Part shown: positions 1-9,394 of the stretch, piece by piece
Layout: every line of letters begins with the position of its first letter
How positions within the stretch are numbered: the stretch's first letter is position 1
Assembly (NCBI GenBank): GCA_964430735.1
Contig: CAYSFB010000001.1
Location: 60,082 to 124,081, forward strand
Direction of reading: 5' to 3'
DNA length: 64,000 nt
Source: an uncultured Planctomycetia bacterium
GTDB taxonomy: Bacteria > Omnitrophota > Gorgyraeia > 2-02-FULL-51-18 > JAGOUK01
The notes under the pieces: generated by a model
What the model saw: only the letters and a program-made list of their open reading frames with translations
What the model was told of the DNA's origin: nothing
Database searches by the model: none
Translations under genes and position numbers: made by a program

Positions 1-285
1 CGTTACTGCCACGCCCGCGTCATCCATGGCGAGCTTGGAAGCGACCAGCAGCATGGTCGTCGTCCGGTCCAAATTCCGGACTGACATATCCCCCAGGTAA
101 TTCTTGGGGTTGAAGTCCGGGACTTCGGCGGCCAAACGCGGCCGGCCGCTTTGGAACAGGGAGACGGGCCTGAATCCCGTCGTTCCGCTTTCCAACGCGT
201 CAAAGAAGGCGTCCTTTCCGATCCCTATCGGCGACACAATGCCGATGCCGGTGATCGCGATTTTTTTGCCTTGTTTTGACTGCAT
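1..285 (-). CDS. fabF: beta-ketoacyl-ACP synthase II (KAS II), N-terminal part; the gene runs off the window start
   Basis: The reverse-strand translation from the ATG at 285 reads MQSKQGKKIAITGIGIVSPIGIGKDAFFDALESGTTGFRPVSLFQSGRPRLAAEVPDFNPKNYLGDMSVRNLDRTTTMLLVASKLAMDDAGV, a typical KAS II N-terminus. It is absent from the ORF track because it has no stop inside the window. Confidence 0.8.
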   Translation of the reverse strand, partial: MQSKQGKKIAITGIGIVSPIGIGKDAFFDALESGTTGFRPVSLFQSGRPRLAAEVPDFNPKNYLGDMSVRNLDRTTTMLLVASKLAMDDAGVAVT

Positions 286-297
286 GTCTCTCTTCAA

Positions 298-1647
298 TTA
301 GCCGAGCGGGTAACTCAAGCTGGTTGTGACGATGTGGTATACGTTGTCGTATTCGCCGTCGATGGAAACGTTGGCCGTCGCGTTTCCGACCGCGTTGTCG
401 ACGGATTGGTCGGCCGTAAACTGAGCGGCGTACGCCAGGCTCAACTTGGCTTTCCCCCACATATATTCCAAGCCGGTCGTAACCGTATGCCGGTCACCGT
501 CCGGGATCACGTTGCTGTAATACGTTTCGGTGGACGCTTGCGTGAAGTAGGCGTACCCGCCGAGAACCGTCCACGTTTCGTTCAGCTTATGCGTCACACC
601 GGTATTCAGAGAGAAGGTGTCATCATAGCCGAAGCGCGCGGGATTGCCGCCCGACAGCACGGCATTGCTCGTCCCGTAAGCGAAGTTGAATTGCTTAAAA
701 GCCGACCACCCGGTCCAACCCAGATCCAGCTCGACGGTCGTCTGGTCCGTTAAATCGTAGGCGGCGCCCACCACGATCGAATCGGGGAATGTGATATCCG
801 TATCCGCGCTGGTCCGGAAGCTGCTGCCGCCAAAAATCGACTGCATGACAACTCCCTGGATATTGTCGACATTGAGCTCTCCGTTCAGTTGAGCCCGCAT
901 CTGGCTGCGGTACATCGCGCCGAAGCTCAGGCGATCCGTGGCCTTCCAAAAAAGAGCCGCGTTCCATCCATATCCATGGCCGTCCAAATCCCACTCGCCC
1001 TCAGCATCCGCAAATGCTCCGGGGAGGCCGTTGGCATTGCTGATAAAGGTCGAATTGAACTTGGTATTCTGCTTCAGATCGATGTCCGCATAAGAAAACC
1101 CGCCGGAGACGGAAAGCGAAGGCGTCAACTCGTACGCCGCGTTCACCGTATAGGCAATCTGCTGGATTTGGTTGTAATGGCCGATGTACTTAAAGTTGCC
1201 GGTGCTCGAGTACTGCGTCACCAGTCCGTAGGGCGAATTGGCGGACACGCCGAGCGTGAGCTTGTCGATGGGCGTCTTGAAGCCCATCGCAAACGCGGGA
1301 ATATAGACGGGCGTCACAGGGCCCGTATCGCTGGCCGTCCCGGATGCGGACTTGAACTCGAAGTTGGGCAGCAGAATGGTGTTGCTGGCCATGATCTCGC
1401 TGCCTTTGAGCTGGGTCAAACCTGCCGGGTTGTAGATCTGTGTCGCGGCATCGCGGGGGTCCGCCACGCCGGCGTTTCCCTTACCCAGAACGCTCGCGTT
1501 ATCCAGTGCGACTTCAAAACCGGCAGATCCGGCCGAGTGGGCCGAGGTGCTCATGAGGATACCCGCAGCCAGCAGAGCCGCGACTTTGGGCATGGTCCGT
1601 AATGCTATCTTCACGCTGTTTCCTTTCCGGTGATGAAATGTGCTCAT
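298..1647 (-). CDS. outer-membrane long-chain fatty acid / hydrophobic compound transporter, OMPP1/FadL/TodX family
   Basis: 449 aa ORF. Signal peptide MPKVAALLAAGILMSTSAHSAG (start may be the internal Met at about 1593). It has the NPA hatch motif (QIYNPAGL), a beta-barrel-like alternating composition and size typical of FadL. Confidence 0.8.
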   Translation of the reverse strand: MSTFHHRKGNSVKIALRTMPKVAALLAAGILMSTSAHSAGSAGFEVALDNASVLGKGNAGVADPRDAATQIYNPAGLTQLKGSEIMASNTILLPNFEFKSASGTASDTGPVTPVYIPAFAMGFKTPIDKLTLGVSANSPYGLVTQYSSTGNFKYIGHYNQIQQIAYTVNAAYELTPSLSVSGGFSYADIDLKQNTKFNSTFISNANGLPGAFADAEGEWDLDGHGYGWNAALFWKATDRLSFGAMYRSQMRAQLNGELNVDNIQGVVMQSIFGGSSFRTSADTDITFPDSIVVGAAYDLTDQTTVELDLGWTGWSAFKQFNFAYGTSNAVLSGGNPARFGYDDTFSLNTGVTHKLNETWTVLGGYAYFTQASTETYYSNVIPDGDRHTVTTGLEYMWGKAKLSLAYAAQFTADQSVDNAVGNATANVSIDGEYDNVYHIVTTSLSYPLG

Positions 1648-1657
1648 GGGCGGCGGG

Positions 1658-1867
1658 TTAGTTCTTCTTCGCCGAGCGGACTTTGAAGTTGGACCGCTCT
1701 TGTTCTTCGATCCAGGAATCGATGGTCTTCTTCTTGAAGCGCCACTGCGAACCGACCTTAAAGCCCGGGAGCTTGCCGCCCGCGACGTGCTTGTAGATGG
1801 TGATGGGTTTCATCCTGAGGTAGTTCGCCAACTCAGGAACTGTAAAAACGTCTTCGTCGTGGGCCAT
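1658..1867 (-). CDS. small excisionase-family (HTH_17-like) DNA-binding protein
   Basis: 69 aa with a helix-turn-helix stretch VPELANYLRMKPITIYKHVAGGKLPGFKVGSQWRF. GC content is about 52%. It is paralogous to the ORF at 49940-50179. Confidence 0.55.
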   Translation of the reverse strand: MAHDEDVFTVPELANYLRMKPITIYKHVAGGKLPGFKVGSQWRFKKKTIDSWIEEQERSNFKVRSAKKN

Positions 1868-1913
1868 TCTGTCTCCTTTTTCGGTATTCGGTTCGCTTCT
1901 TTATGAGCGAAAG

Positions 1914-1955
1914 TATGTTTAGTGTATTTGTCTGATATATCATTGTCAATACTAA
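1914..1955 (-). promoter_or_regulatory. putative sigma70-type promoter for the HTH-FadL transcript
   Basis: On the minus strand TTGACA lies at 1949-1944 and TACACT at 1926-1921 with a 17-nt spacer, inside a 190-bp AT-rich island (1868-2058). AAGGAG-like RBS lies before the ATG at 1867. Confidence 0.4.
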
Positions 1956-2058
1956 GCGGAATTAAGCAAAACTATATCTTGCGATACAACACTCTCCCAA
2001 GCACTAATTGTGGGAGTAAAACGATACTATATTTAGATTGGATGCTATTTGGAGGGTT

Positions 2059-2598
2059 CTACTGAGGAAAAATCACACGCTCAAGCAAAGGCAGCCCAAG
2101 CTTAAAAATCGCACGTACGTTGTCGTCTAAAGAAATGCCGGAATCAACCACATAAGGTGCGGTAAAAAGCTTCGGCCCGTCATCCACCCGCTCCGTCGCC
2201 CGGTGCAAGGTCAGCCCCGAAGCGCCCCCGCCTTGTTCCCAGACCCGCCGCACCGGCTCCCGCCCCGCCTGACCCGGCAATAACCCCGGATGAAAGTTCA
2301 CAAACCCCGACCGGGCCATCTTCAAGCTGGCTCCGGACAGAATGACCCCGAAGTTTGCAATGATCCCCAGGTCGATCGGCCCCTGCTCGGCTATCTGCCA
2401 CAGCGCCTCGGCCACATCCGAATCCCCGGCCACCCGATAGATCTCAGCCCGCGCCAGCCGCCCAACCCTCAGCGCCGCCTCCGCCTCGCCCTCTCCTTCA
2501 TATAGAAGGCCGGCCAGCCGCACCCCCGGCAACGCGGCCAAGGCCTTCGGGTATTCCCAGATATTGCCGAGATAGACGACGCTAGTAAGTTTGTTCAT
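2059..2598 (-). CDS. formyltransferase-domain protein (Formyl_trans_N fold; PurN/Fmt-N/ArnA-N-like), stand-alone catalytic domain
   Basis: 179 aa. N-terminus VVYLGNIWEYPKALAAL, motif DLGIIANFGVIL and the folate-site motif NFHPGLLPGQAG. There is no Fmt-type C-terminal domain, so it is not the canonical methionyl-tRNA formyltransferase. Confidence 0.6.
   Translation of the reverse strand: MNKLTSVVYLGNIWEYPKALAALPGVRLAGLLYEGEGEAEAALRVGRLARAEIYRVAGDSDVAEALWQIAEQGPIDLGIIANFGVILSGASLKMARSGFVNFHPGLLPGQAGREPVRRVWEQGGGASGLTLHRATERVDDGPKLFTAPYVVDSGISLDDNVRAIFKLGLPLLERVIFPQ
2477..2583. repeat. direct repeat copy A, covering the 5' end of the formyltransferase gene (about 107 bp; partner at 4144-4250)
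   Basis: A 51-nt exact match gcctccgcctcgccctctccttcatatagaaggccggccagccgcaccccc is followed by about 55 nt at roughly 85-90% identity, ending ...attgccgagatagacga. Confidence 0.85.
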
Positions 2599-2872
2599 TG
2601 CGGCGTTTGACGGCCAGGATAAATACTTTTTTCTCGCTGTCCACGATATCGTAAAAAATACGGTATCGTCCTACCCGGATCCGGTAATAGGCAAGCGCTT
2701 GGCAGACTTTGGAAGGCGGGGTTAACTTGGTGTAGCCATGAGGCCTTGGATCCTGCCCCAAATTTTCCACAGCTACTATGATAGCTTCCTGATCGAACTC
2801 GGGATAATCCGACAGATCCTTGATGAAGCGCTTTTCGGACGATGGCGAGGGGTGTAGAACGCGGTAATTCAA
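2582..2872 (-). CDS. type II toxin, RelE/ParE family (mRNA interferase-like)
   Basis: 96 aa. The C-terminal YYRIRVGRYRIFYDI...VFILAVKRR matches the RelE/ParE signature. A 4-nt ATGA overlap joins it to the upstream antitoxin ORF. Its stop sits exactly at the repeat A boundary and overlaps the formyltransferase start. Confidence 0.75.
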   Translation of the reverse strand: MNYRVLHPSPSSEKRFIKDLSDYPEFDQEAIIVAVENLGQDPRPHGYTKLTPPSKVCQALAYYRIRVGRYRIFYDIVDSEKKVFILAVKRRNEQTY

Positions 2873-3165
2873 GCTTTTCGGGATGCCCGGATCTTCTTAA
2901 AGGAGGCTTCCACTGGAATTCCCTCTGCGCCGGCTCCAATGGCCCGCTTGCCCTCGAATACTTGAGACATAAGATCCTTGTCCTGCAAGTCATCGACCAT
3001 TTCGATCAAGTCGAGCATCATCTGATACGGTAGCAGCACCTGCCGAGGCTGGCCATGCTCAGTGATCACGACCGGCTTAACGGACTTGATGTTGCGCGCC
3101 ATGTTATCTCTTAAGTCCTTGGAACCGATATGCGGGGCCTTGAGGATCTGAGTGGCGAGTGTCAT
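2869..3165 (-). CDS. type II antitoxin, Phd/YefM-like
   Basis: 98 aa. It lies immediately upstream of the RelE-like ORF and is coupled to it. The N-terminal core KPVVITEHGQPRQVLLPYQMMLDLIE resembles Phd/YefM antitoxins. Confidence 0.6.
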   Translation of the reverse strand: MTLATQILKAPHIGSKDLRDNMARNIKSVKPVVITEHGQPRQVLLPYQMMLDLIEMVDDLQDKDLMSQVFEGKRAIGAGAEGIPVEASFKKIRASRKA

Positions 3166-3242
3166 GTTATCTCCATTTAGTTACATTATTATGTACACAA
3201 ATAGGATACATGATTATTGAGCGAATTCAAGGCCGGGCTACC
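3166..3242 (-). promoter_or_regulatory. AT-rich promoter/operator of the TA operon with TACAT/ATGTA inverted repeats
   Basis: Half-sites TACAT (3182-3186), ATGTA (3191-3195) and TACAT (3207-3211) form inverted repeats upstream of a GGAG RBS and the antitoxin ATG at 3165. Antitoxin operators typically sit in this position. Confidence 0.4.
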
Positions 3243-3731
3243 TCAGGGCTTCGACACGCCCTCGGAAGCAGTGCGCTGGATCCGGGCAAAACCGGCATCG
3301 GCGGGAGCCGCGTGCTTGAGCACGGAGGTGCGCATGGAGTCAGGGATGGAAAGATACTTACCCTTGAAGTCGTCAAAAGCCAGCTTCTGCATCCCCTCAT
3401 ACATGAGGACGCCGGTCTCCTGATTCTTCACCACGAAGTACATCTCGAAGCTGAACTTGCGGATATTCCCTGTCGAGAGCTCGATCTGAAGCTCATCACC
3501 AAAAAACGCGTGATGGATAAAGTAGGAGTGCTCCTCGACCGTGATCATGTTGAGCCGGCCTTCGTAGACTGCCTTCATGATCTCGGGCCAATCGGGACAG
3601 GTCTGGAGGAAATACTTTTCCCGAGCTATCCCCTGCCATTTCACATAATTGGAAAAGTAAACAACCCCGCCGACGGCGTTCGTCTCATTGAAGAAAACTT
3701 GATGCTGGAGGATGAAGGGGGCGGGCGTCAC
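3243..3731 (-). CDS. hotdog-fold acyl-CoA/acyl-ACP thioesterase (4HBT/YbgC-like)
   Basis: 162 aa. Motif FFNETNAVGGVVYFSNYVKW is of the 4HBT type. The start is GTG at 3731. GC content is about 50%, against about 67% in the flanks. Confidence 0.65.
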   Translation of the reverse strand: MTPAPFILQHQVFFNETNAVGGVVYFSNYVKWQGIAREKYFLQTCPDWPEIMKAVYEGRLNMITVEEHSYFIHHAFFGDELQIELSTGNIRKFSFEMYFVVKNQETGVLMYEGMQKLAFDDFKGKYLSIPDSMRTSVLKHAAPADAGFARIQRTASEGVSKP

Positions 3732-3987
3732 GCGTTACGAGATGGGCTTGGGTCCTGGGGGGGGTCGCCGCCACATCGATCACGTCCTGGACGGTTTTGA
3801 TTCTGGCAAGCTGCTCATCCGTCAGATCAATCCCGAGCTCTTCCTGCAAAGAGATGGAAAGCTCCGCCACGTCCAATGAGTCGGCCCCCAGATCCTGGAC
3901 GATAGAGGCTTCGGGAGTTACTTTTTCCATAGGCACGGAAAGGGCCTTGGATATAACGGCGCGGATTTTGTCGGGTGATACTTCCAT
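3685..3987 (-). CDS. acyl carrier protein; the 3' end is probably frameshifted at a G8/C8 homopolymer
   Basis: Phosphopantetheine-site motif DLGADSLDVAEL in an ACP-like four-helix layout. With one fewer C in the run at 3757-3764 the protein would end ...DVIDVAATPPGPKPIS at a TAA (3737-3735), just before the thioesterase GTG. Confidence 0.75.
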   Translation of the reverse strand: MEVSPDKIRAVISKALSVPMEKVTPEASIVQDLGADSLDVAELSISLQEELGIDLTDEQLARIKTVQDVIDVAATPPRTQAHLVTRDARPLHPPASSFLQ

Positions 3988-4143
3988 GAGATGGTTAGTA
4001 TAGCAATTGCAAGGGCGCGGTGTCTTTGATTCAAACTGGTCTCAGGATCACCTAAGGGGAATTGTGCACTTAGACCTTAGAGGGGGGTCTCACCCCCATA
4101 CGGTAAATCTCCGTCCTCGACGGCCGCCTGAGCCAAAATTCAG

Positions 4144-4255
4144 CCTCCGCCTCGCCCTCTCCTTCATATAGAAGGCCGGCCAGCCGCACCCCCTGGATCC
4201 CGGCCAAGGCTTTCGGGTATTCCCAAATATTGCCGAGATAGACGATGCGTTTATT
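4144..4255 (-). pseudogene. truncated duplicate of the formyltransferase 5' end (repeat copy B), with no start codon and no catalytic region
   Basis: It encodes ...RIVYLGNIWEYPKALAGIQGVRLAGLLYEGEGEAEAE, matching residues about 5-42 of the 2059-2598 protein. It appears in the ORF track only inside the chimeric ORF 4070-4381, which overlaps the 3' end of the next gene. Confidence 0.6.
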
Positions 4256-5526
4256 CAATTTTTTGGGGCTGACGTTCCGACCCGGGTCTCGCCGTAAGCG
4301 ACGGATGGCTGGGTGTGCAGATAAGGCTGAAGAACTTCTTTTAAATAGTCCGCATACACCTTGTTTCCAAAGACATTCCAATGGCCGTCGTACTTCCAGT
4401 AGATGCTGTCCGGATCTATACGGTTCGCATGCAAATATTTGCTGAACTCAAAGTACGGAACCCCATTTTTGGACAAGAATCCTTTGAGCTCGGCGTAATA
4501 GTCTTTGACGTTCGAGGCCCGCTTCGGAATGAGGCTAAAAAGAAGCGTGTAGCCGTGCTTCTTTGAATGCGCCGCCCATTCCAAAATGGCCTTGCGATTC
4601 TCCTCGGCGAGTTCGGAATCAAACGGGTAGGACGCAGTGTATCCGCTCAGTTCGAGAATTCTAGCAAAATGATGGTATGCGGGATCCACGAAGGACGACG
4701 TCTTCAGCCTGTCAAGCAGCCGGTTATTGCGAGGCCAGTTCTTGATATAGCTGAGAATATTCGCCGTTGCGGAGTATCGTTTGACCAAATCCCGGATGTT
4801 TCTATACCGCTGATACCGCCGCCCTCTCTCAAGCAAAAGCTGATGCTCGGTCAGCCGGACCAGCTCATATTTCCCGGTCTTCAGATCGAAGCGGACGTAA
4901 CTATCTTCCGTCAGATATCCGTCAATGACCGTGCTATGCGGAAACGCATAGTCTCCCTGAATATCGTTGGCAACATAATTGACGACGACGATTCTTGGTT
5001 TCTTGTTCAGTGCTTCGTATATTTCCTTGAACTTCTGGAACTGGTGCCTCTGGGCCGTGTGAGTCACGCCGCATTTTAATACCCGCACCCCTAAAGACGC
5101 TTCCAGAAGAGTGCCGAATTTTTTATCAAACGGGGCGAAGGCAAATGTGAAGCTGTCGCCGGCGAGATAGATCTCGGGGCTGTCGGTATCGAGAAGGTCC
5201 GTGTCAAAGCAGCCTAGATTATTGCCCCAGACATCAAAAGGCTCTGTTTCTCTGGGCTTATGACTGCGGCTTTTCACGTTATGCGCCAAATCGAAGCCGC
5301 GCGTGGGATGTGCCACGAACAAATACCGCTCGTAAAGATCCCGATCGTCCGGCGCGGTGGCGTAGCCCGAATTGAGGCAGCGGACTTCGTTGCGCAGGGC
5401 GTAATAGGCAAACAGGTCAAAAAAAGCCAGCGAAGCGAGAATTATGCCGGCAAACGCGGCACAAGACTGCATCCGGGCTCGAAGCTGGCGGGGTCTGGGT
5501 TGCATATCGGATTTATTTGAGCGCAT
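4255..5526 (-). CDS. membrane-anchored SGNH/DHHW-family hydrolase or acyltransferase (AlgX/AlgJ/DltD-like)
   Basis: 423 aa with an N-terminal TM helix (AAFAGIILASLAFFDLFAYYAL), a GDS block (YLAGDSFTFAF) and a C-terminal DGHWN (D-x-H-W) motif. Confidence 0.55.
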   Translation of the reverse strand: MRSNKSDMQPRPRQLRARMQSCAAFAGIILASLAFFDLFAYYALRNEVRCLNSGYATAPDDRDLYERYLFVAHPTRGFDLAHNVKSRSHKPRETEPFDVWGNNLGCFDTDLLDTDSPEIYLAGDSFTFAFAPFDKKFGTLLEASLGVRVLKCGVTHTAQRHQFQKFKEIYEALNKKPRIVVVNYVANDIQGDYAFPHSTVIDGYLTEDSYVRFDLKTGKYELVRLTEHQLLLERGRRYQRYRNIRDLVKRYSATANILSYIKNWPRNNRLLDRLKTSSFVDPAYHHFARILELSGYTASYPFDSELAEENRKAILEWAAHSKKHGYTLLFSLIPKRASNVKDYYAELKGFLSKNGVPYFEFSKYLHANRIDPDSIYWKYDGHWNVFGNKVYADYLKEVLQPYLHTQPSVAYGETRVGTSAPKN

Positions 5527-5561
5527 CGGAATCGAATAATCTTAACCCGTCACGCTTAAAT

Positions 5562-5610
5562 AAAAAAGAAAAACCCGGCCGGGAATTTTTCAACTCCCGA
5601 CCGGGTTTTT
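5562..5610. terminator. rho-independent terminator downstream of glnK (minus strand); the hairpin is flanked by A-run and T-run
   Basis: Stem cccggccggga / tcccgaccggg (5574-5605), with TTTTT on the plus side and a T-rich run (uuuuucuuuuuu) on the minus-strand side. Confidence 0.6.
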
Positions 5611-5637
5611 GATATCAACAGAACGATAGAACCGGAC

Positions 5638-5979
5638 TTATCCGATCGCGACGGGGCCTGTTTCGCCCGTGCGGATGCGGAGCACGTCCTTGAGCTCGAT
5701 CACGAAGATTTTTCCGTCGCCCACCTGGCCGGTACGAGCGCCGCCGGCGATCGCTTCGATGGCGGACTTCACGTACTCTTCGTTCACGGCGCATTCGATC
5801 TTCACCTTGCGCAGAAGGCTTCCCGCTTCCTTGTGGGAGCGGTAGACTTCGGCGACGCCCTTTTGGCGGCCGCGGCCCATGACCGTCGAAACGGTCAGGA
5901 GGTGGATTTCTTTTTCTTCCAATTTACGGAGCACGTCGTCGAGGCGGTCCGGCTGGATTACGGCAATGATGTATTTCAT
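5638..5979 (-). CDS. glnK: nitrogen regulatory protein P-II
   Basis: 113 aa. T-loop GRGRQKG, C-terminal GDGKIFV...RIRTGE. It lies immediately downstream of an ammonium transporter gene. Confidence 0.9.
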   Translation of the reverse strand: MKYIIAVIQPDRLDDVLRKLEEKEIHLLTVSTVMGRGRQKGVAEVYRSHKEAGSLLRKVKIECAVNEEYVKSAIEAIAGGARTGQVGDGKIFVIELKDVLRIRTGETGPVAIG

Positions 5980-5997
5980 ATCAGCTTCCTTTCCGCC

Positions 5998-7332
5998 TTA
6001 GTCGACCAGCGTGTAGCTGGATTCGCGATGTTGTGTGAGGTCCAGACCGATCCGCTCTTCCTGCTGCGAGACGCGCAGGCCCATGAGCATGTCGATCACC
6101 TTGAGGATCACGAACGTCGCGACAAACGCGTACACGGTGACGATCGCGGTAACCTTGATCTGGATCCAGAGCTGGGCGGGATTTCCGTACAGCAGACCGT
6201 CCGCGCCGGCCGGATTGACGGCCTTGGTCGCAAAAAGACCGGTCGCGATGGAGCCCCAGATACCGCCGATGCCATGAACGCCGAAGGCGTCCAGCGTGTC
6301 GTCGTATCCGAACTTCACCTTCACCCAGGTCACGAAGAAGAAGCAAATCAGCGAAACGGACACGCCGATGGCCAGCGCGCCGAACGGATCCACGAAGCCG
6401 GCGGCCGGAGTGATGGCCACGAGTCCGGCCACGACGCCGGTGATCATGCCGAGCCCGGTCGGGTGATTGTTGATCTTCCAGTCGAGCAGGGCCCAGGTCA
6501 GGCCTGCCATGGCCGCGGCGATGTGCGTCACGACGAACGCGTTGGCGGCCAACGCTCCGGAGCCCAGCGCGCTGCCGGCGTTGAATCCGAACCAGCCGAA
6601 CCACAGAAGGCTCGCGCCCAAAACGGCCAGCGGAAGGTTATGAGGCGGAGACATGTGGTCGGGATAACCGACGCGCTTCCCTAATACAAGCGCCGCAACC
6701 AGCGCCGCGACACCGGCGTTGATGTGAACGACCGTTCCGCCCGCGAAGTCGAGCGCCCCGGTGGCCCGCAGCCAACCGCCGACCGCCCACACCCAATGAC
6801 AGACGGGGTTGTAGACGACCGTCGCCCAAACCAGGATAAAAATGCAGTACGCGCTGAACTTCATGCGCTCGGCGAACGCGCCGAGGATGAGCGCCGGCGT
6901 GATGATGGCGAACATCATCTGGAAAATCATGAACGCCTGGTGCGGAATCGTCGCCGCGTAATCCGCGTTGGGCTCAAGACCGACGCCCTGCAGACCGACC
7001 CATGACAGATTGCCGATCAGACCTTTGACGTCCGGGCCGAACGACAGCGTGTAACCGATCAGCACCCACTGGACGGTGATCAGGCACATCGCCATGAAGC
7101 ACTGCATGAGAATCGAGAGCATGTTCTTGCGGCGGACCAAACCGCCGTAAAAGAACGCGAGGCCGGGGGTCATGAGCAGGACCAAAGCCGCGCTGAGCAG
7201 AATCCAGGCGGTATCTCCGGAATCGTTGGTCGGGGCGGGAGCGTCAGCGGCGAACGCGGGGGCGGCCCAAAGGGCCAGTCCCGCGATCATGCCGGCGATG
7301 CTCCGCAGCCAAGGGGCGCGAAATGGGGTCAT
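5998..7332 (-). CDS. amt: ammonium transporter (Amt family) with signal peptide
   Basis: 444 aa with 11 TM helices and the Amt signature LAFFYGGLVRRKN. Confidence 0.9.
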   Translation of the reverse strand: MTPFRAPWLRSIAGMIAGLALWAAPAFAADAPAPTNDSGDTAWILLSAALVLLMTPGLAFFYGGLVRRKNMLSILMQCFMAMCLITVQWVLIGYTLSFGPDVKGLIGNLSWVGLQGVGLEPNADYAATIPHQAFMIFQMMFAIITPALILGAFAERMKFSAYCIFILVWATVVYNPVCHWVWAVGGWLRATGALDFAGGTVVHINAGVAALVAALVLGKRVGYPDHMSPPHNLPLAVLGASLLWFGWFGFNAGSALGSGALAANAFVVTHIAAAMAGLTWALLDWKINNHPTGLGMITGVVAGLVAITPAAGFVDPFGALAIGVSVSLICFFFVTWVKVKFGYDDTLDAFGVHGIGGIWGSIATGLFATKAVNPAGADGLLYGNPAQLWIQIKVTAIVTVYAFVATFVILKVIDMLMGLRVSQQEERIGLDLTQHRESSYTLVD

Positions 7333-7516
7333 GAGAACTCCTCTTCCTTATTTATGCTGTGGCGGTCGGTGTCAAACGGTCAAAGCTGCCAAAACTGCTT
7401 CGGTCACGATCATCGCACCATTGTCCTTTTTGATGTTTCAGTCATGTTACGGGGCCGTAACAATTGCATCCGGCCAAAATACAACCTTCACGCTCCCGAA
7501 ATTTGGCCGTAACACC

Positions 7517-7532
7517 GGGCCGTAGAATTGCA
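7517..7532 (+). promoter_or_regulatory. sigma-54 (-24/-12)-like element upstream of the plus-strand amt gene
   Basis: gGGccgtagaaTTGCAc has GG at 7518-7519 and GC at 7530-7531 with correct spacing to TGGCAC-N5-TTGCA. A second related copy, ggccgtaacaaTTGCAt, lies at 7453-7468 with spacing one nt longer. The repeated ggccgtaaca units could be alternative promoters or regulator half-sites. Confidence 0.35.
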
Positions 7533-7581
7533 CACAAGAACTTCCACAGTCGGGGGTTCGAAACACACACAAGGAGACGAT

Positions 7582-8919
7582 ATGGATTACAAAGTCGCAC
7601 TGGACACCATGTGGACGCTTCTGGCGGGCATGCTGGTGTTCTGGATGAACGCGGGATTCGCCTGCGTCGAGGCGGGATTCGCCCGGCAGAAGAACTGCGT
7701 CAACATCCTGTCCAAGAACTTCATCGTCTTCGCCGTAAGCTCCCTGGCCTTCTGGTTCATCGGCTGGGGTCTTATGTTCGGAGACGGCAACGGTTGGCTC
7801 GGCATGAAGGGAGTCTTCATGCTGCACGGGGCGGACAACAGCCCGGCGACCGGTGACGCGTATCAAGGCGTGTACAGCGCCATTTCGTGGGCTACGGTTC
7901 CCTTCTTCGCCAAGTTTTTCTTCCAGCTGGTGTTCGCGGGTACCGCCGCGACCATCGTGTCGGGAGCCGTGGCGGAACGGATCAAGTACCACTCGTTCAT
8001 CATCTTCTCGTTCATCCTCGTCGCGTTCATGTACCCGATCACGGGTCACTGGATCTGGGGTGGCGGCTGGCTGGCGGGTCTCGGATTCTGGGACTTCGCC
8101 GGTTCGACCGTCGTTCACTCGGTCGGCGGCTGGGCGGCCCTCGCAGGCGTCCTCGTCCTCGGACCGCGCTTCGGCAAGTACAACGAAGACGGCAAGGTCA
8201 ACCCGATCCCGGGTCACAACCTTTCGCTTGGAACCATCGGCTGCTTTATTCTGTGGCTCGGCTGGTTCGGATTCAACCCCGGCAGCACCATGGCCGCCGC
8301 GGTCGAAGACATGTCCCGCATCGCCGTGACCACCAACAGCGCGGCCATTGCGGCCATCCTGACCTCGACCATCACTTCCTGGATCCTGATCGGCAAGCCG
8401 GACCTCGGCATGACGCTGAACGGCTGCCTGGCGGGCCTGGTCGCGATCACCGCCCCCTGCGCTTACGTCTCGGTCGAAAGCTCGCTCATCATCGGCGCCG
8501 TCGCCGGCGTGCTCGTCGTGCTTGCGATCGGATTCTTTGACCGGATCAAGATCGACGATCCGGTGGGCGCCACCTCGGTCCACTTGGTCAACGGTGTCTT
8601 CGGAACCATCTGCGTCGGACTCTTCGCCCAGGACAAATTCCTCCCCAACACGACCGGAGACGGTCTCCTGTTCGGCGGCGGAACCAAGCTCCTGATGGCG
8701 CAGCTTACCGGCATCGCGGCAGTTGCCGTCTTCACGTTCGTCGTCAGCTATGTCGTCTGGATGATCCTGAAGCACACGATCGGCATCCGCGTCTCTCTGC
8801 ATGAAGAAATCCAGGGATTGGACCTTGGCGAACACGGCAACCAGGCCTACCCCGAATTCAACACCCGCAAACAGAGCTACACCTTCCTGGGTTACACCTC
8901 TGCCGGCGGAAAGGAGTAA
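7582..8919 (+). CDS. amt: ammonium transporter (Amt family), second copy
   Basis: The start is taken as ATG 7582 (MDYKVALDTMW...) with an AAGGAG RBS at 7571-7576; the ORF track begins at an upstream in-frame codon at 7528. Sequence shows a clear Amt fold. Confidence 0.9.
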   Translation: MDYKVALDTMWTLLAGMLVFWMNAGFACVEAGFARQKNCVNILSKNFIVFAVSSLAFWFIGWGLMFGDGNGWLGMKGVFMLHGADNSPATGDAYQGVYSAISWATVPFFAKFFFQLVFAGTAATIVSGAVAERIKYHSFIIFSFILVAFMYPITGHWIWGGGWLAGLGFWDFAGSTVVHSVGGWAALAGVLVLGPRFGKYNEDGKVNPIPGHNLSLGTIGCFILWLGWFGFNPGSTMAAAVEDMSRIAVTTNSAAIAAILTSTITSWILIGKPDLGMTLNGCLAGLVAITAPCAYVSVESSLIIGAVAGVLVVLAIGFFDRIKIDDPVGATSVHLVNGVFGTICVGLFAQDKFLPNTTGDGLLFGGGTKLLMAQLTGIAAVAVFTFVVSYVVWMILKHTIGIRVSLHEEIQGLDLGEHGNQAYPEFNTRKQSYTFLGYTSAGGKE

Positions 8920-8922
8920 GGC

Positions 8923-9261
8923 ATGAAAAAAATCACCGCCGTCATTCGCGTCGAAGCTTACGAGCCGGTCACCAAGGCGCTCGAGCGTTGCGGTTACCCC
9001 GGCATCATGGTCTCGGACATTGAAGGTCACGGTAAACAAAAGGGTGTCGTGCAGGTCTGGCGCGGAGAGAAGTTCCGCATGGAACTCCTGCCGAAGCTGA
9101 AGATCGAGATCGTGGTTCCGGATTCGCAGGTCGACCGCCTCATCGGCGAGATCTGCAAAGCCGCGAGCACCGGCCAGCCCGGCGACGGCAAGATCTTCAT
9201 CTCGCCGATCGACGAAGCCGTCCGCATCCGCACCGGAGAAAGAGGAGAAAAGGCCCTCTAA
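8923..9261 (+). CDS. glnK: nitrogen regulatory protein P-II, second copy
   Basis: 112 aa, GHGKQKG T-loop, and a GGAAAGGAG RBS. Confidence 0.9.
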   Translation: MKKITAVIRVEAYEPVTKALERCGYPGIMVSDIEGHGKQKGVVQVWRGEKFRMELLPKLKIEIVVPDSQVDRLIGEICKAASTGQPGDGKIFISPIDEAVRIRTGERGEKAL

Positions 9262-9272
9262 CCGTCCGCTCT

Positions 9273-9394
9273 AAGCGCCTGGGTTCAGGCGCTTGAAAAA
9301 AAACCGCCGTCCCGTTCCTTATCGGAGATCCGCGCAAGCAGAAATCCAGTCCCTTGAGGGGTCGAGGGGCTTACGGGGCGGCGGTCTTTTTTTT
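9273..9394. terminator. bidirectional rho-independent terminator between convergent glnK (+) and the LpxL-like gene (-)
   Basis: An inner perfect hairpin aagcgcctg-ggtt-caggcgctt (9273-9294) sits inside an outer stem ccgccgtcccg (9304-9314) / cggggcggcgg (9374-9384). The structure is flanked by A8 (9296-9303) and T8 (9387-9394), giving a U-run on both strands. Confidence 0.55.

Follow-up and report, generated by a model that had tools for sequence, protein, structure and literature searches.

Tandem duplication followed by random loss is a classic model of gene-order change in organelle genomes. The locus described here resembles its outcome in two respects: a circular permutation of a conserved gene order, with genes for an acyl carrier protein and a thioesterase (ACP-TE) moved from behind a FadL-type channel gene to ahead of a formyltransferase-like gene (FT), and a relic, resembling a pseudogene, of the first gene in the duplicated block. 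It differs from that model in that relics of the intervening genes were not found in the window, the whole 64,000-nt stretch of DNA analysed here, and in that the mosaic age structure of its relic is more than a single duplication can explain.

Another parallel is Campbell-type integration, known from suicide vectors and occurring spontaneously in E. coli conjugation, where single crossovers of circularised molecules duplicate the homologous segment over 109–950 bp (PMC3240628). The locus shares with it a direct duplication of part of the target gene flanking the insert, one copy truncated and one complete, the lack of a site-specific recombinase, a duplication (~107–160 bp) within the reported range and reversibility through recombination between the repeats, while it differs in having arisen naturally, between diverged alleles in lineages that are uncultivated, with a hypothetical donor circle and an insert of native-type cluster genes plus a toxin-antitoxin (TA) pair and no plasmid backbone. 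In the T6SS effector-immunity arrays of Vibrio cholerae and the orphan 3' ends of Rhs/CDI systems, modules are acquired by an upstream homology anchor together with an illegitimate join (HFIR), and 3' orphan arrays accumulate (PMC5361080). Here too a conserved stretch within a gene anchors modules of relatives and fossil partial gene copies are left without an integrase, but the fossil is a 5' end situated within a lipid-gene cluster, and with its distal part (b3, Table 1) not of the recipient type, the relic is at odds with classical HFIR. TA pairs, finally, stabilise chromosomal cassette arrays according to Szekeres 2007, as cited in PMC8230891. Compared with the superintegron relBE/parDE pairs described there, the RelE/ParE-Phd pair of the window similarly lies inside a repeat-bounded, potentially excisable segment, and a sister lineage holds a different TA pair in the same slot; the window differs by having no integron, attC or integrase, by a stabilisation that is presumed by analogy, and by a TA operon that also provides the context for the start codon of FT downstream.

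Pfam profile searches confirmed the gene content that had been read from the sequence in the original prediction, all on the minus strand (Table 1). In FT the match covers only residues 62–153 of the full protein. The toxin matched PF05016 (32.8 bits, cut-off 23, residues 15–94 of 96) and no NCBIfam model, while the antitoxin scored 20.2 bits against PF02604, under the gathering cut-off of 29.8; the two genes are co-oriented with the antitoxin first, its end overlapping the start of relE by 4 nt, and are predicted to form a type II TA module. In ACP a C8 tract, which is C6 in the sister lineage (L005), shifts the frame of the C-terminal tail, and the -10 box of the spacer together with the ACP start region is conserved in L005. 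The SGNH gene, for which the product called by NCBI is 405 aa (its start would be 5472), separates the glnK terminator from the start of FT. This terminator closes the conserved amtB-glnK unit, the direct predecessor of FT in relatives, and L008 and L012 have comparable hairpins behind glnK. The HTH_17 gene is found in all relatives, with or without an insert, and the FadL allele is very divergent, with 39–42% identity to all relatives.

Table 1. Positions in the window of the genes, repeat parts and signals of the FT locus
Feature	Position	Strand	Remarks
FadL/TodX-type outer-membrane channel	298..1647	-	cluster member
HTH_17 gene	1658..1867	-	excisionase-family DNA-binding fold; conserved cluster member
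FT, formyltransferase-like	2059..2598	-	Formyl_trans_N, intact, 179 aa; copy A = 5' end (2430-2582/2598), core A 2477-2527
Toxin, ParE/RelE family	2582..2872	-	96 aa; last 17 nt overlap FT start
Antitoxin, Phd/YefM-like	2869..3165	-	98 aa, weak match
Thioesterase (TE)	3243..3731	-	hotdog 4HBT_2, YbgC/FadM-like; orthologue of cluster TE
ACP, acyl carrier protein	3685..3987	-	orthologue of cluster ACP
Spacer	3988..4096	-	ends in promoter-like AAGACA-18-TG-n-TATACT, 9 nt ahead of ACP ATG
FT' (copy B)	4070..4258	-	62-codon ORF, 5' relic of FT; homology 4258/4252 to ~4097
b3, post-core copy B	4097..4142	-	diverged 37% (17/46) from L005 FT, 39% (18/46) from copy A
Core B	4143..4193	-	51 nt identical to core A
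b1, pre-core copy B	4194..4249	-	near L005 FT, 2 differences/56 nt
SGNH/AlgX-like hydrolase or acyltransferase	4255..5526	-	ORF 423 aa; Pfam ALGX / Lipase_GDSL_2
Intrinsic terminator after glnK	5569..5610	-	19-bp stem + T-run
glnK (P-II)	5638-5979		

The direct repeat first noticed in the sequence was borne out by a repeat search, which gave 153 nt of 84% identity (2430–2582 and 4096–4248, spacing 1666) with a longest identical stretch, the core, of 51 nt. This pair of FT 5' ends is the sole direct repeat of at least 40 nt within the window, and a 50-nt core occurs exactly twice against none expected in shuffles. From the offset of 1666, copy B runs from 4143 to 4249 and not, as given originally, from 4144 to 4250, a shift of 1 nt. 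Beyond these 107 nt about 46 nt more of homology, at ~61–65% identity, reach 2431 and 4097, and if a 6-nt indel is allowed the homology probably extends up to both start codons. The start regions read ATGAACAAA at 2598–2590 in copy A and TTGAATAAA at 4258–4250 in copy B. The RelE stop (2582–2584) does adjoin the ungapped repeat, as had been said of this boundary, but copy B is not start-less: it retains TTG-AAT, the start called for FT in L005, and its TTG (4258–4256) overlaps the SGNH stop (TTGA). Both copies are the 5' end of one formyltransferase-like gene, of which FT' (4258–4097) is truncated and FT (2598–2059) complete. The relic of ~52 codons, which has no Pfam match of its own, occupies the place that FT has in relatives, downstream of amtB-glnK, although it is cut off from glnK by the SGNH gene, while the intact FT headed by copy A lies 1666 bp further along. 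A GC hairpin, GGGGGT-GAG-ACCCCC, is seen where the FT homology of copy B ends.

Alignment with the FT of L005 shows copy B to be a chimera, with ~94% identity to that gene over the first 107 nt and 63% over the following 46 nt, that is, 6/107 differences before and within the core versus 17/46 after it (p=3e-6). The site patterns switch at the core (p=0.0017, or 0.03 by a conservative count), since before it copy B agrees with L005 at 6 sites and copy A at 2, while after it copy B agrees at 1 site and copy A at 14. Between the copies themselves there are 8/56 differences before the core and 0/51 within. The contrast between b3 and the corresponding part of copy A (a3) is strong, whereas that between b1 and the pre-core part of copy A (a1) is weak, 2 versus 6 differences from L005 in 56 nt, which is not significant alone, three of the six being clustered, and makes a donor type of a1 tentative. 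We infer that the core is the crossover or heteroduplex tract. The outer halves, the 5' part of copy B and the 3' part of copy A, make up one coherent FT that would directly follow SGNH. At four-fold sites the divergence from L005 is 35.5% (22/62) in TE versus 11.2% (10/89) in FT (p=0.0005), a threefold difference between TE and FT in synonymous divergence. The depth of divergence of b3 is that of the thioesterase and not that of the surrounding FT, the four-fold-site value of TE being comparable to the 37% raw divergence of b3. The changes in b3 by codon position, 8/4/9 in our own tally, fit functional divergence and neutral decay alike. Because copy B is chimeric and TE is three times as divergent as FT at synonymous sites, the segment between the cores has a history of its own, and in this the idea of a separate unit between the repeats holds.

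What the segment carries is another matter. In six related lineages (L006, L007, L008, L010, L012 and L013) the order is amtB-glnK-FT-HTH17-FadL-ACP-TE-HisKA_7TM kinase, and the window proteins share 65–67% (TE), 45–61% (ACP), 93–96% (P-II) and 85–90% (Amt) identity with their orthologues there; the window TE is 88% identical to that of L005. By identity and position, the window ACP and TE are orthologues of the cluster pair that follows FadL, and a second ACP of the window lineage (L016) is unrelated in sequence. Since the pair stands after FadL in all six lineages, ACP-TE are native cluster genes that were relocated and not alien cargo, and the term accessory cassette, used originally, does not suit them. 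L005 has the order ACP-TE, permease (reverse), HigB-HigA, FT-HTH17-FadL, and its DNA homology with the window is confined to ACP-TE (87%) and FT-HTH17 (92%), with a right-hand limit at the HTH_17 stop codon. The TA pair is a separate passenger, its slot being taken in L005 by HigB/HigA and the permease, and the inner DNA a composite of cluster ACP-TE and a Phd/RelE module in the slot of HigBA. A second FT start was not found on the L005 contig, which ends 300 nt upstream of the gene preceding ACP, and in the window lineage the slot between FadL and the kinase holds a KAS-ACP2-dehydratase cluster without ACP-TE. Every relative examined has a single FT 5' end and none has SGNH, the nearest homologue of which is 40% identical and which is absent from all related loci; it is a lineage-specific foreign gene. 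The deep ancestral upstream neighbour of FT in related lineages is glnK (P-II), and not SGNH as had been proposed. An empty site (SGNH-FT with a single copy) was not found in the searchable data, which hold one close relative, L005, and the searched data gave no donor in the form of a full-length FT of a1-core-b3 type behind RelE.

Base composition was part of the first argument for an insertion, with ~50–52% GC set against ~67% in the flanks. This contrast was overstated, the inner segment having 52.5% GC, the whole FT 61.5% and only the 153-nt copy A alone 67%, and it fails at the right flank, where SGNH has 51.6%; positions 1751–6000 form one low-GC trough in a window of 61.6% GC. The thioesterase has a host-like GC3 of 74%, while SGNH has 62% versus 72–83% in host genes, and this low GC3, together with the lack of a homologue above 40% identity, marks SGNH itself as an import.

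The repeat and the mosaic divergence support the view of the locus as a recombination scar. The likeliest explanation, at about even odds, is that a block from a related lineage entered the FT 5' end by homologous recombination within its core. On this view a related lineage with the order ACP-TE-TA-FT already in place would have supplied the inner segment (b3 - spacer - ACP - TE - Phd - RelE - a1) as a single unit, by addition or exchange, through RecA-type recombination inside the conserved FT 5' end with the 51-bp core as crossover or heteroduplex tract. In the simplest version, a fragment of ~1.67 kb ending ~160 nt into the donor FT would have closed into a circle, and one Campbell-type crossover would have inserted it into a resident SGNH-FT locus. 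A single crossover gives a direct duplication whose length is that of the shared homology, with one truncated and one complete copy and neither integrase nor transposase, so that a repeat deemed too long for a target-site duplication ceases to be puzzling (109–950 bp duplications, PMC3240628). As originally remarked, no integrase or transposase was found, here among the ORFs and Pfam matches within 5 kb on either side; the repeat search found no terminal inverted repeats pairing the insert boundaries, and the segment gave no match to plasmids or phages. Translation of FT would now begin inside the 3' end of RelE. With 51 bp identical, a loop-out deletion could leave a single hybrid FT beside SGNH, and loss of the enclosed TA pair may be counter-selected, by which ACP-TE would be stabilised; by analogy, a TA pair in a segment prone to loop-out is compatible with a stabilising role. 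Against a single crossover, the recipient would lie nearer on an FT tree to L005, a lineage with ACP-TE ahead of FT, than would the donor, and for this reason extra recombination is needed under any model.

The foremost alternative, possible but doubtful, places the events in situ, with a tandem duplication of FT-HTH17-FadL-ACP-TE in the ancestor of the window lineage and L005. Deletion of the FT 3' part, HTH17 and FadL of the first copy would yield FT'-ACP-TE-FT, and later the second ACP-TE would be displaced, TA and SGNH arrive and gene conversion renew the first 107 nt of FT'. The conserved order, permuted circularly, gives that of the window, and a relic of the edge gene, the FT 5' end, stands exactly at the place predicted. 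At this ancestral position FT' still has the TTG-AAT start typical of the clade, and ACP-TE stand upstream of FT, and not after FadL, in the window and in L005 alike. The age of copy B is, however, uneven (5.6% vs 37% divergence across the core end), and the differences between the copies before and within the core require two or more additional events of conversion or replacement. The spacer between FT' and ACP resembles neither FadL 3' ends nor FadL-ACP spacers (p>0.3), L005 lacks an FT' between its upstream gene and ACP, and TE and FT differ in synonymous depth.

It is improbable, on our estimate, that the ACP-TE-TA unit between the FT 5' copies constitutes a recurrent integrase-free mobile cassette, with the FT start as "attachment site", RecA loop-out, transfer as circle or fragment, re-entry by crossover and a swappable TA pair (Phd/RelE, HigBA) as addiction function. 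Quite improbable, too, is an assembly mis-join among mixed strains, or a different pairing of the repeats, in which the chromosome would read SGNH-b1-core-a3 with a single FT and the inner segment would come from the locus of another strain, or from a looped-out or tandem form, threaded via the 51-nt repeat. Logan unitigs from other, independent samples match the window at 100% identity, but those of five samples all end inside the core (L001 at 4164, L009 at 4172 and 2498, L016/17/19/20 at 2506), as expected where k=31, below the 51-nt repeat, leaves the graphs ambiguous, and the pairing across the core thus rests on the MAG assembly. The hybrid b1+core+a3 is a perfectly coherent L005-like FT, as the mis-join reading also predicts. 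A unitig beginning at 2482 (L018) hints at an additional variant in one sample. On the other side, the unitig L009 matches 4172–2498, running from core B through the entire inner segment to core A, and with FT 5' sequence on both sides it shows that the duplication exists in some genome under either pairing; normal reads, like the largest k of common assemblers, exceed the repeat in length, which makes read support for the 303-kb MAG contig probable, and a 1.67-kb circle would presumably lack a replication function.

That copy B has been kept as functional, either as a 62-aa peptide translationally coupled to SGNH or as a leader or regulatory element for ACP-TE, would explain a conserved first 107 nt beside a drifting remainder, and the open ORF with its TTG overlapping the SGNH stop, the sharp conservation boundary at the core end and the GC hairpin would agree with it. 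This is nevertheless highly improbable, as no Rfam match was obtained, none of the other lineages examined has a fragment like FT', the catalytic part of the fold is missing (Pfam covers residues 62–153 of the full protein) and recent recombination accounts better than selection on a peptide for 107 nt conserved even at synonymous sites. Insertion of a dedicated mobile element (transposon, integrase island or integron-type cassette, the repeats being a target duplication or att), to which the att-like identical 51-nt core on both sides, the excisionase-family HTH_17 gene 190 nt downstream of FT and the enclosed TA module might point, is largely refuted already and hardly credible, given that 9 kb contain no transposase or integrase (the ORFs in 1–9300 all belong to other families), that the boundaries have neither terminal inverted repeats nor an attC-like palindrome, that 153 nt of 84% identity far exceed the 2–14 bp identical target duplications of transposases, that the copies diverged mosaically on either side of the core, that HTH_17 is 94–99% conserved in all insert-less relatives, that ACP-TE are cluster orthologues and that plasmid or phage similarity is absent.

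The FT duplication is a real and fairly ordinary rearrangement scar, most likely due to recombination into the FT start, and not a novel kind of mobile element, and the locus opens no new class of system. It serves as a clean natural example of a gene block with a TA passenger placed before a gene without mobile-element machinery, the resulting long direct duplication being puzzling if taken for a transposon footprint, and as a warning for annotation that repeat-bounded low-GC "cassettes" may be native genes. The comparison further brings to light a cluster beside amtB-glnK that is widely conserved and had not been described before, consisting of FT, HTH_17, FadL, ACP, TE and the 7TM kinase, the slots of which have been repeatedly refilled with SGNH, a polysaccharide deacetylase, TA modules and an aryl-polyene-like lipid cluster.

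The 5' end of a formyltransferase-like gene (FT) is found twice among the genes of 1-7332, all of which lie on the minus strand: once in the intact gene (copy A) and once in a 62-codon relic (FT', copy B) on the other side of an acyl carrier protein gene (ACP), a hotdog thioesterase gene (TE) and a toxin-antitoxin (TA) pair. The direct repeat is genuine, comprising 153 nt with 84% identity (2430-2582 versus 4096-4248, offset 1666), and is the only one of at least 40 nt in the window. Its longest identical run, the core, is 51 nt long (2477-2527 = 4143-4193) and occurs twice in the window but never in shuffles; with just two copies in 64 kb a common genomic repeat was ruled out. The flanking duplication of the original prediction therefore stands, with the coordinates of copy B shifted by one base and with homology that runs 46 nt past the proposed limit at ~61-65% identity, and when a 6-nt indel is allowed it probably extends to the start codons. 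These read ATG-AAC-AAA in A, TTG-AAT-AAA in B and TTG-AAT in the FT of L005, a contig from a sister lineage, and are separated by in-frame indels. Copy B had been described as start-less but keeps its TTG-AAT-AAA start, the TTG overlapping the stop of the SGNH gene as TTGA. A break of all three upstream junctions at FT codon 3 was considered and dropped, as A, B and L005 share [A/T]TGAA[C/T] starts, and the native FT start codon is probably kept in all three.

Features of the FT locus and the Logan unitigs that match it (window positions)
Feature	Coordinates	Strand	Remark
amtB	7332-5998	-	first in transcription order
glnK/P-II	5979-5638	-	after amtB
Terminator, strong	5610-5569	-	after glnK
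SGNH/AlgX-like gene	5526-4255	-	after terminator
FT', 62-codon ORF, 5' fragment of formyltransferase-like gene	4258-4070	-	after SGNH
ACP	3987-3685	-	after FT'
TE, hotdog thioesterase	3731-3243	-	after ACP
Phd-like antitoxin	3165-2869	-	after TE
ParE/RelE toxin	2872-2582	-	after Phd-like antitoxin
FT, intact formyltransferase-like gene	2598-2059	-	after ParE/RelE
HTH_17	1867-1658	-	after FT
FadL	1647-298	-	after HTH_17
Ketosynthase, start only	285-1	-	after FadL
Unitig L001	5729-4164		match
Unitig L009	4172-2498		match
Unitigs L016, L017, L019, L020	2506		start
Unitig L018 (SRR14271372)	2482		start

Alignment of A, B and the L005 FT from the R/S-I/V-V-Y codons onward revealed a switch of site pattern at the core (Fisher p=0.0017, or p=0.03 with the junction base dropped and a 3-change cluster counted once). 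Over the 56 nt before the core, 6 sites group B with L005 to the exclusion of A and 2 group A with L005 to the exclusion of B. The core is identical in A and B, with L005 different at 4 sites. Over the 46 nt after it, 14 sites group A with L005 and 1 groups B with L005. Differences between A and B number 8/56 before the core and 0/51 in it. Copy B differs from L005 at 6 of 107 positions through the end of the core and at 17 of 46 beyond (p=3e-6), and is thus a chimera whose 5' part is young and whose 3' part is old. The divergence between window and L005 at four-fold sites is 35.5% (22/62) for TE, 22% for ACP, 21% for HTH_17 and 11.2% (10/89) for FT, the difference between TE and FT being significant (p=0.0005); at 37% divergence from the L005 FT, the older stretch of copy B lies at the neutral depth of TE, and the young part matches the divergence of the FT body. 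This pattern indicates that the inner segment, from the end of the B core to the start of the A core, has a deeper and different history from that of the surrounding FT.

The FT search gave only 8 homologues, scanning metagenomes with the alignment of FT gave no match, a scan with HTH_17 returned distant or already known loci only and a scan of genome contigs with SGNH gave at best ≤38% identity, in unrelated taxa; neither an empty site nor a donor was found across the FT, HTH_17 and SGNH searches. In six related lineages (L006, L007, L008, L010, L012 and L013) the gene order is (amtB-glnK)-FT-HTH_17-FadL-ACP-TE-HisKA_7TM kinase-RR-RR-HD, and their identity to the window is 85-90% for Amt, 93-96% for P-II and 94-99% for HTH_17 but 50-55% for FT, 65-67% for TE and 45-61% for ACP. 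From this conserved order glnK, and not SGNH as was first proposed, is the deep ancestral upstream neighbour of FT, and ACP-TE, taken originally as accessory cargo, is native to the cluster with its normal place after FadL. Just upstream of FT the locus is variable, with a polysaccharide deacetylase in L007, UbiD-STAS in L006 and a 246-aa secreted protein in L021, a further locus. No SGNH homologue above 40% identity was found and the gene is missing from all related loci, which makes it the truly foreign gene of the locus.

The sole close relative is L005 (FT 89% identity), with the order 369-aa protein, ACP, TE, amino-acid permease (reverse, split), HigB, HigA, FT, HTH_17, FadL. DNA homology to the window is confined to two blocks, ACP-TE (window 3966-3271, 87%) and FT-HTH_17 (window 2582-1659, 92%), so that ACP-TE upstream of FT is common to both while the TA module differs. 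No FT' was seen between the upstream gene and ACP in L005, and a second FT 5' end is absent from every relative's locus retrieved. The reversed permease (L005 2216-3567), predicted in two pieces of 260 and 187 aa and therefore probably disrupted, indicates that the slot between TE and FT takes more than TA modules. Between FadL and the kinase, where the six relatives carry ACP-thioesterase and L005 a double-hotdog protein and an ICMT/methyltransferase fusion, the window lineage has KAS-ACP2-FabA/ApeI-KAS-FAD oxidoreductase-KAS, then a full-length kinase, with no ACP-TE remnant. Unitig L016 continues the left edge of the window beyond position 1 and carries KAS/ACP/FabA-ApeI-like dehydratase genes (L016 2222-8181); those that it has between FadL and the 7TM histidine kinase form an aryl-polyene-like lipid cluster.

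The contrast in base composition held only in part. The inner segment is low in GC (52.5%) but so is the SGNH flank (51.6%), and where ~67% had been claimed for the flanks, FT has 61.5%, 67% being reached only by the 153-nt copy A. All 1.5-kb windows below 54% GC fall within 1751 to ~6000, against a whole-window mean of 61.6%. GC3 is 74% in TE and 72-83% in host genes, and lower in RelE (57%), ACP (59%), SGNH (62%) and Phd (67%). The low-GC, high-GC3 profile of TE is repeated in every relative, and this together with its GC3 ruled out low GC as a sign that ACP-TE is foreign.

These sequences are most economically explained by import or exchange of the inner segment, as one unit, through homologous recombination in the conserved FT 5' end, with the 51-bp identical tract as the crossover or heteroduplex region. 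In one version a single crossover would have joined a resident SGNH-FT locus with a circularised fragment of ~1.67 kb, reaching from ~100 nt upstream of ACP to ~160 nt into the donor FT, from a related lineage with an L005-like order. The products would be a direct duplication as long as the homology carried, a truncated copy followed by donor sequence and one complete hybrid copy, and a recombinase gene would not be needed; a double crossover at both cores, with a donor already FT'...FT, would leave the same pattern. In a study of E. coli, products of exactly this type predominated, their duplications measuring 109-950 bp (PMC3240628). Classical homology-facilitated illegitimate recombination (described in PMC5361080) was rejected, as it predicts a relic whose distal part is of recipient type, while the post-core part of B is 39% diverged from that of A. 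The insertion scar of the original prediction thus survives in refined form, with a cargo made up for the most part of genes that are native to the cluster and come from a related lineage, and with SGNH as the alien gene. That ordinary homologous recombination, with no unknown mobiliser, is the mechanism, making the scar a new example of an already known type of event, carries about half of our belief.

A tandem duplication of FT...TE in situ, with a later deletion, is possible, if doubtful; it accounts neatly for the permutation of the genes and for the place where the relic lies, but the two ages within copy B demand additional conversion events and junction relics are lacking. By eye the end of FT' looked like the stop region of FadL, but local alignments to seven FadL 3' ends with their downstream spacers and to the 3' end of the FadL in the window itself did not score above shuffled sequences (p>0.3), and a deletion junction inside FadL was discarded.

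A mis-join in a strain mixture, or a circular or tandem form, is improbable. Unitigs from five other runs match the window at 100% identity, all ending inside the core because a k=31 graph cannot cross a 51-nt repeat, and the span of L009 means that one molecule carries FT 5' sequence on either side of the inner segment; for how the outer flanks pair, the evidence is the 303-kb MAG contig. The start of the FT-side unitig L018 at 2482, against 2506 in the other four, hints at an extra branch, or another strain's variant, close to the core in the SRR14271372 sample.

That FT' acts as a functional peptide or leader is very unlikely and unsupported, with zero Rfam matches at E≤1 for structured RNA in 1500-5800 and no second FT 5' end in relatives. 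A dedicated mobile element is scarcely credible given the lack of transposase and integrase genes in 1-9300 and of terminal inverted repeats, a duplication far too long, an HTH_17 conserved in lineages without the insert and no blastn match to plasmids or phages.

The locus shows several further features. The HTH_17 protein (69 aa) is 94-99% identical across lineages (L005-L013 and L021 were considered) against 50-55% for the flanking FT and 39-42% for FadL, and its stop codon is precisely where the DNA homology between window and L005 ends. The gene resembles either a recombination anchor that stays fixed within a hypervariable locus or a regulator under strong constraint. The window FadL shares 39-42% identity with its counterparts in all cluster relatives, the sister L005 included, but 49.5% to that of the unrelated metagenome contig L024 (2721-3959), where the neighbouring HTH_17 is 78% identical and FT is absent, which suggests allelic replacement of FadL. 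Between window and L005, FT has 87% amino acid identity at merely 11% four-fold-site divergence and TE 88% at 35%, suggesting relaxed or diversifying selection on FT with fast change at the protein level.

The spacer between FT and HTH_17 (1868-2058, 191 nt, 36% GC, 92% identity to the L005 spacer) contains the best σ70-like site of the region, TTGACA-17-TACACT (1949-1921), probably the promoter of HTH_17-FadL. An extended -10-like TGnTATACT is situated only 9 nt ahead of the ACP ATG (4026-3985), with no Shine-Dalgarno sequence, and is kept in L005 as TGnTATACT-N9-ATG (1440-1473), and TATACT or TATAGCT is found 7 nt before the FT ATG in L012 (~6950-6975) and L010 (~3270-3290); such boxes close to the ATG suggest leaderless transcripts in the FT/ACP cluster. 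A C8 homopolymer in the ACP 3' tail (~3764-3771, minus), C6 in L005, shifts the tail by +2, giving an ORF of 100 aa with a 47-nt overlap with TE instead of the ATGA stop/start overlap of L005; the tract is probably real, being identical in the independent unitig L009, and could be slippage-prone. Two divergently transcribed amtB-glnK pairs adjoin the locus (5998-7332 and 7528-8919), an arrangement also kept in L012 and L013, and the amtB paralogues are linked by a 51-nt stretch of 86% complementarity (6558-6608/8249-8299).

If the inner segment did arrive by homologous recombination, FT would now start from an ATG that lies within the 3' end of relE, and the 51-bp identity would permit a loop-out deletion that leaves a single intact hybrid FT beside SGNH. 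Selection would act against cells that lose Phd/RelE, as PMC8230891 relates from Szekeres 2007 for TA pairs in superintegrons. The hypervariable cluster of FT, HTH_17, FadL and ACP-TE may be of more interest than the scar itself.
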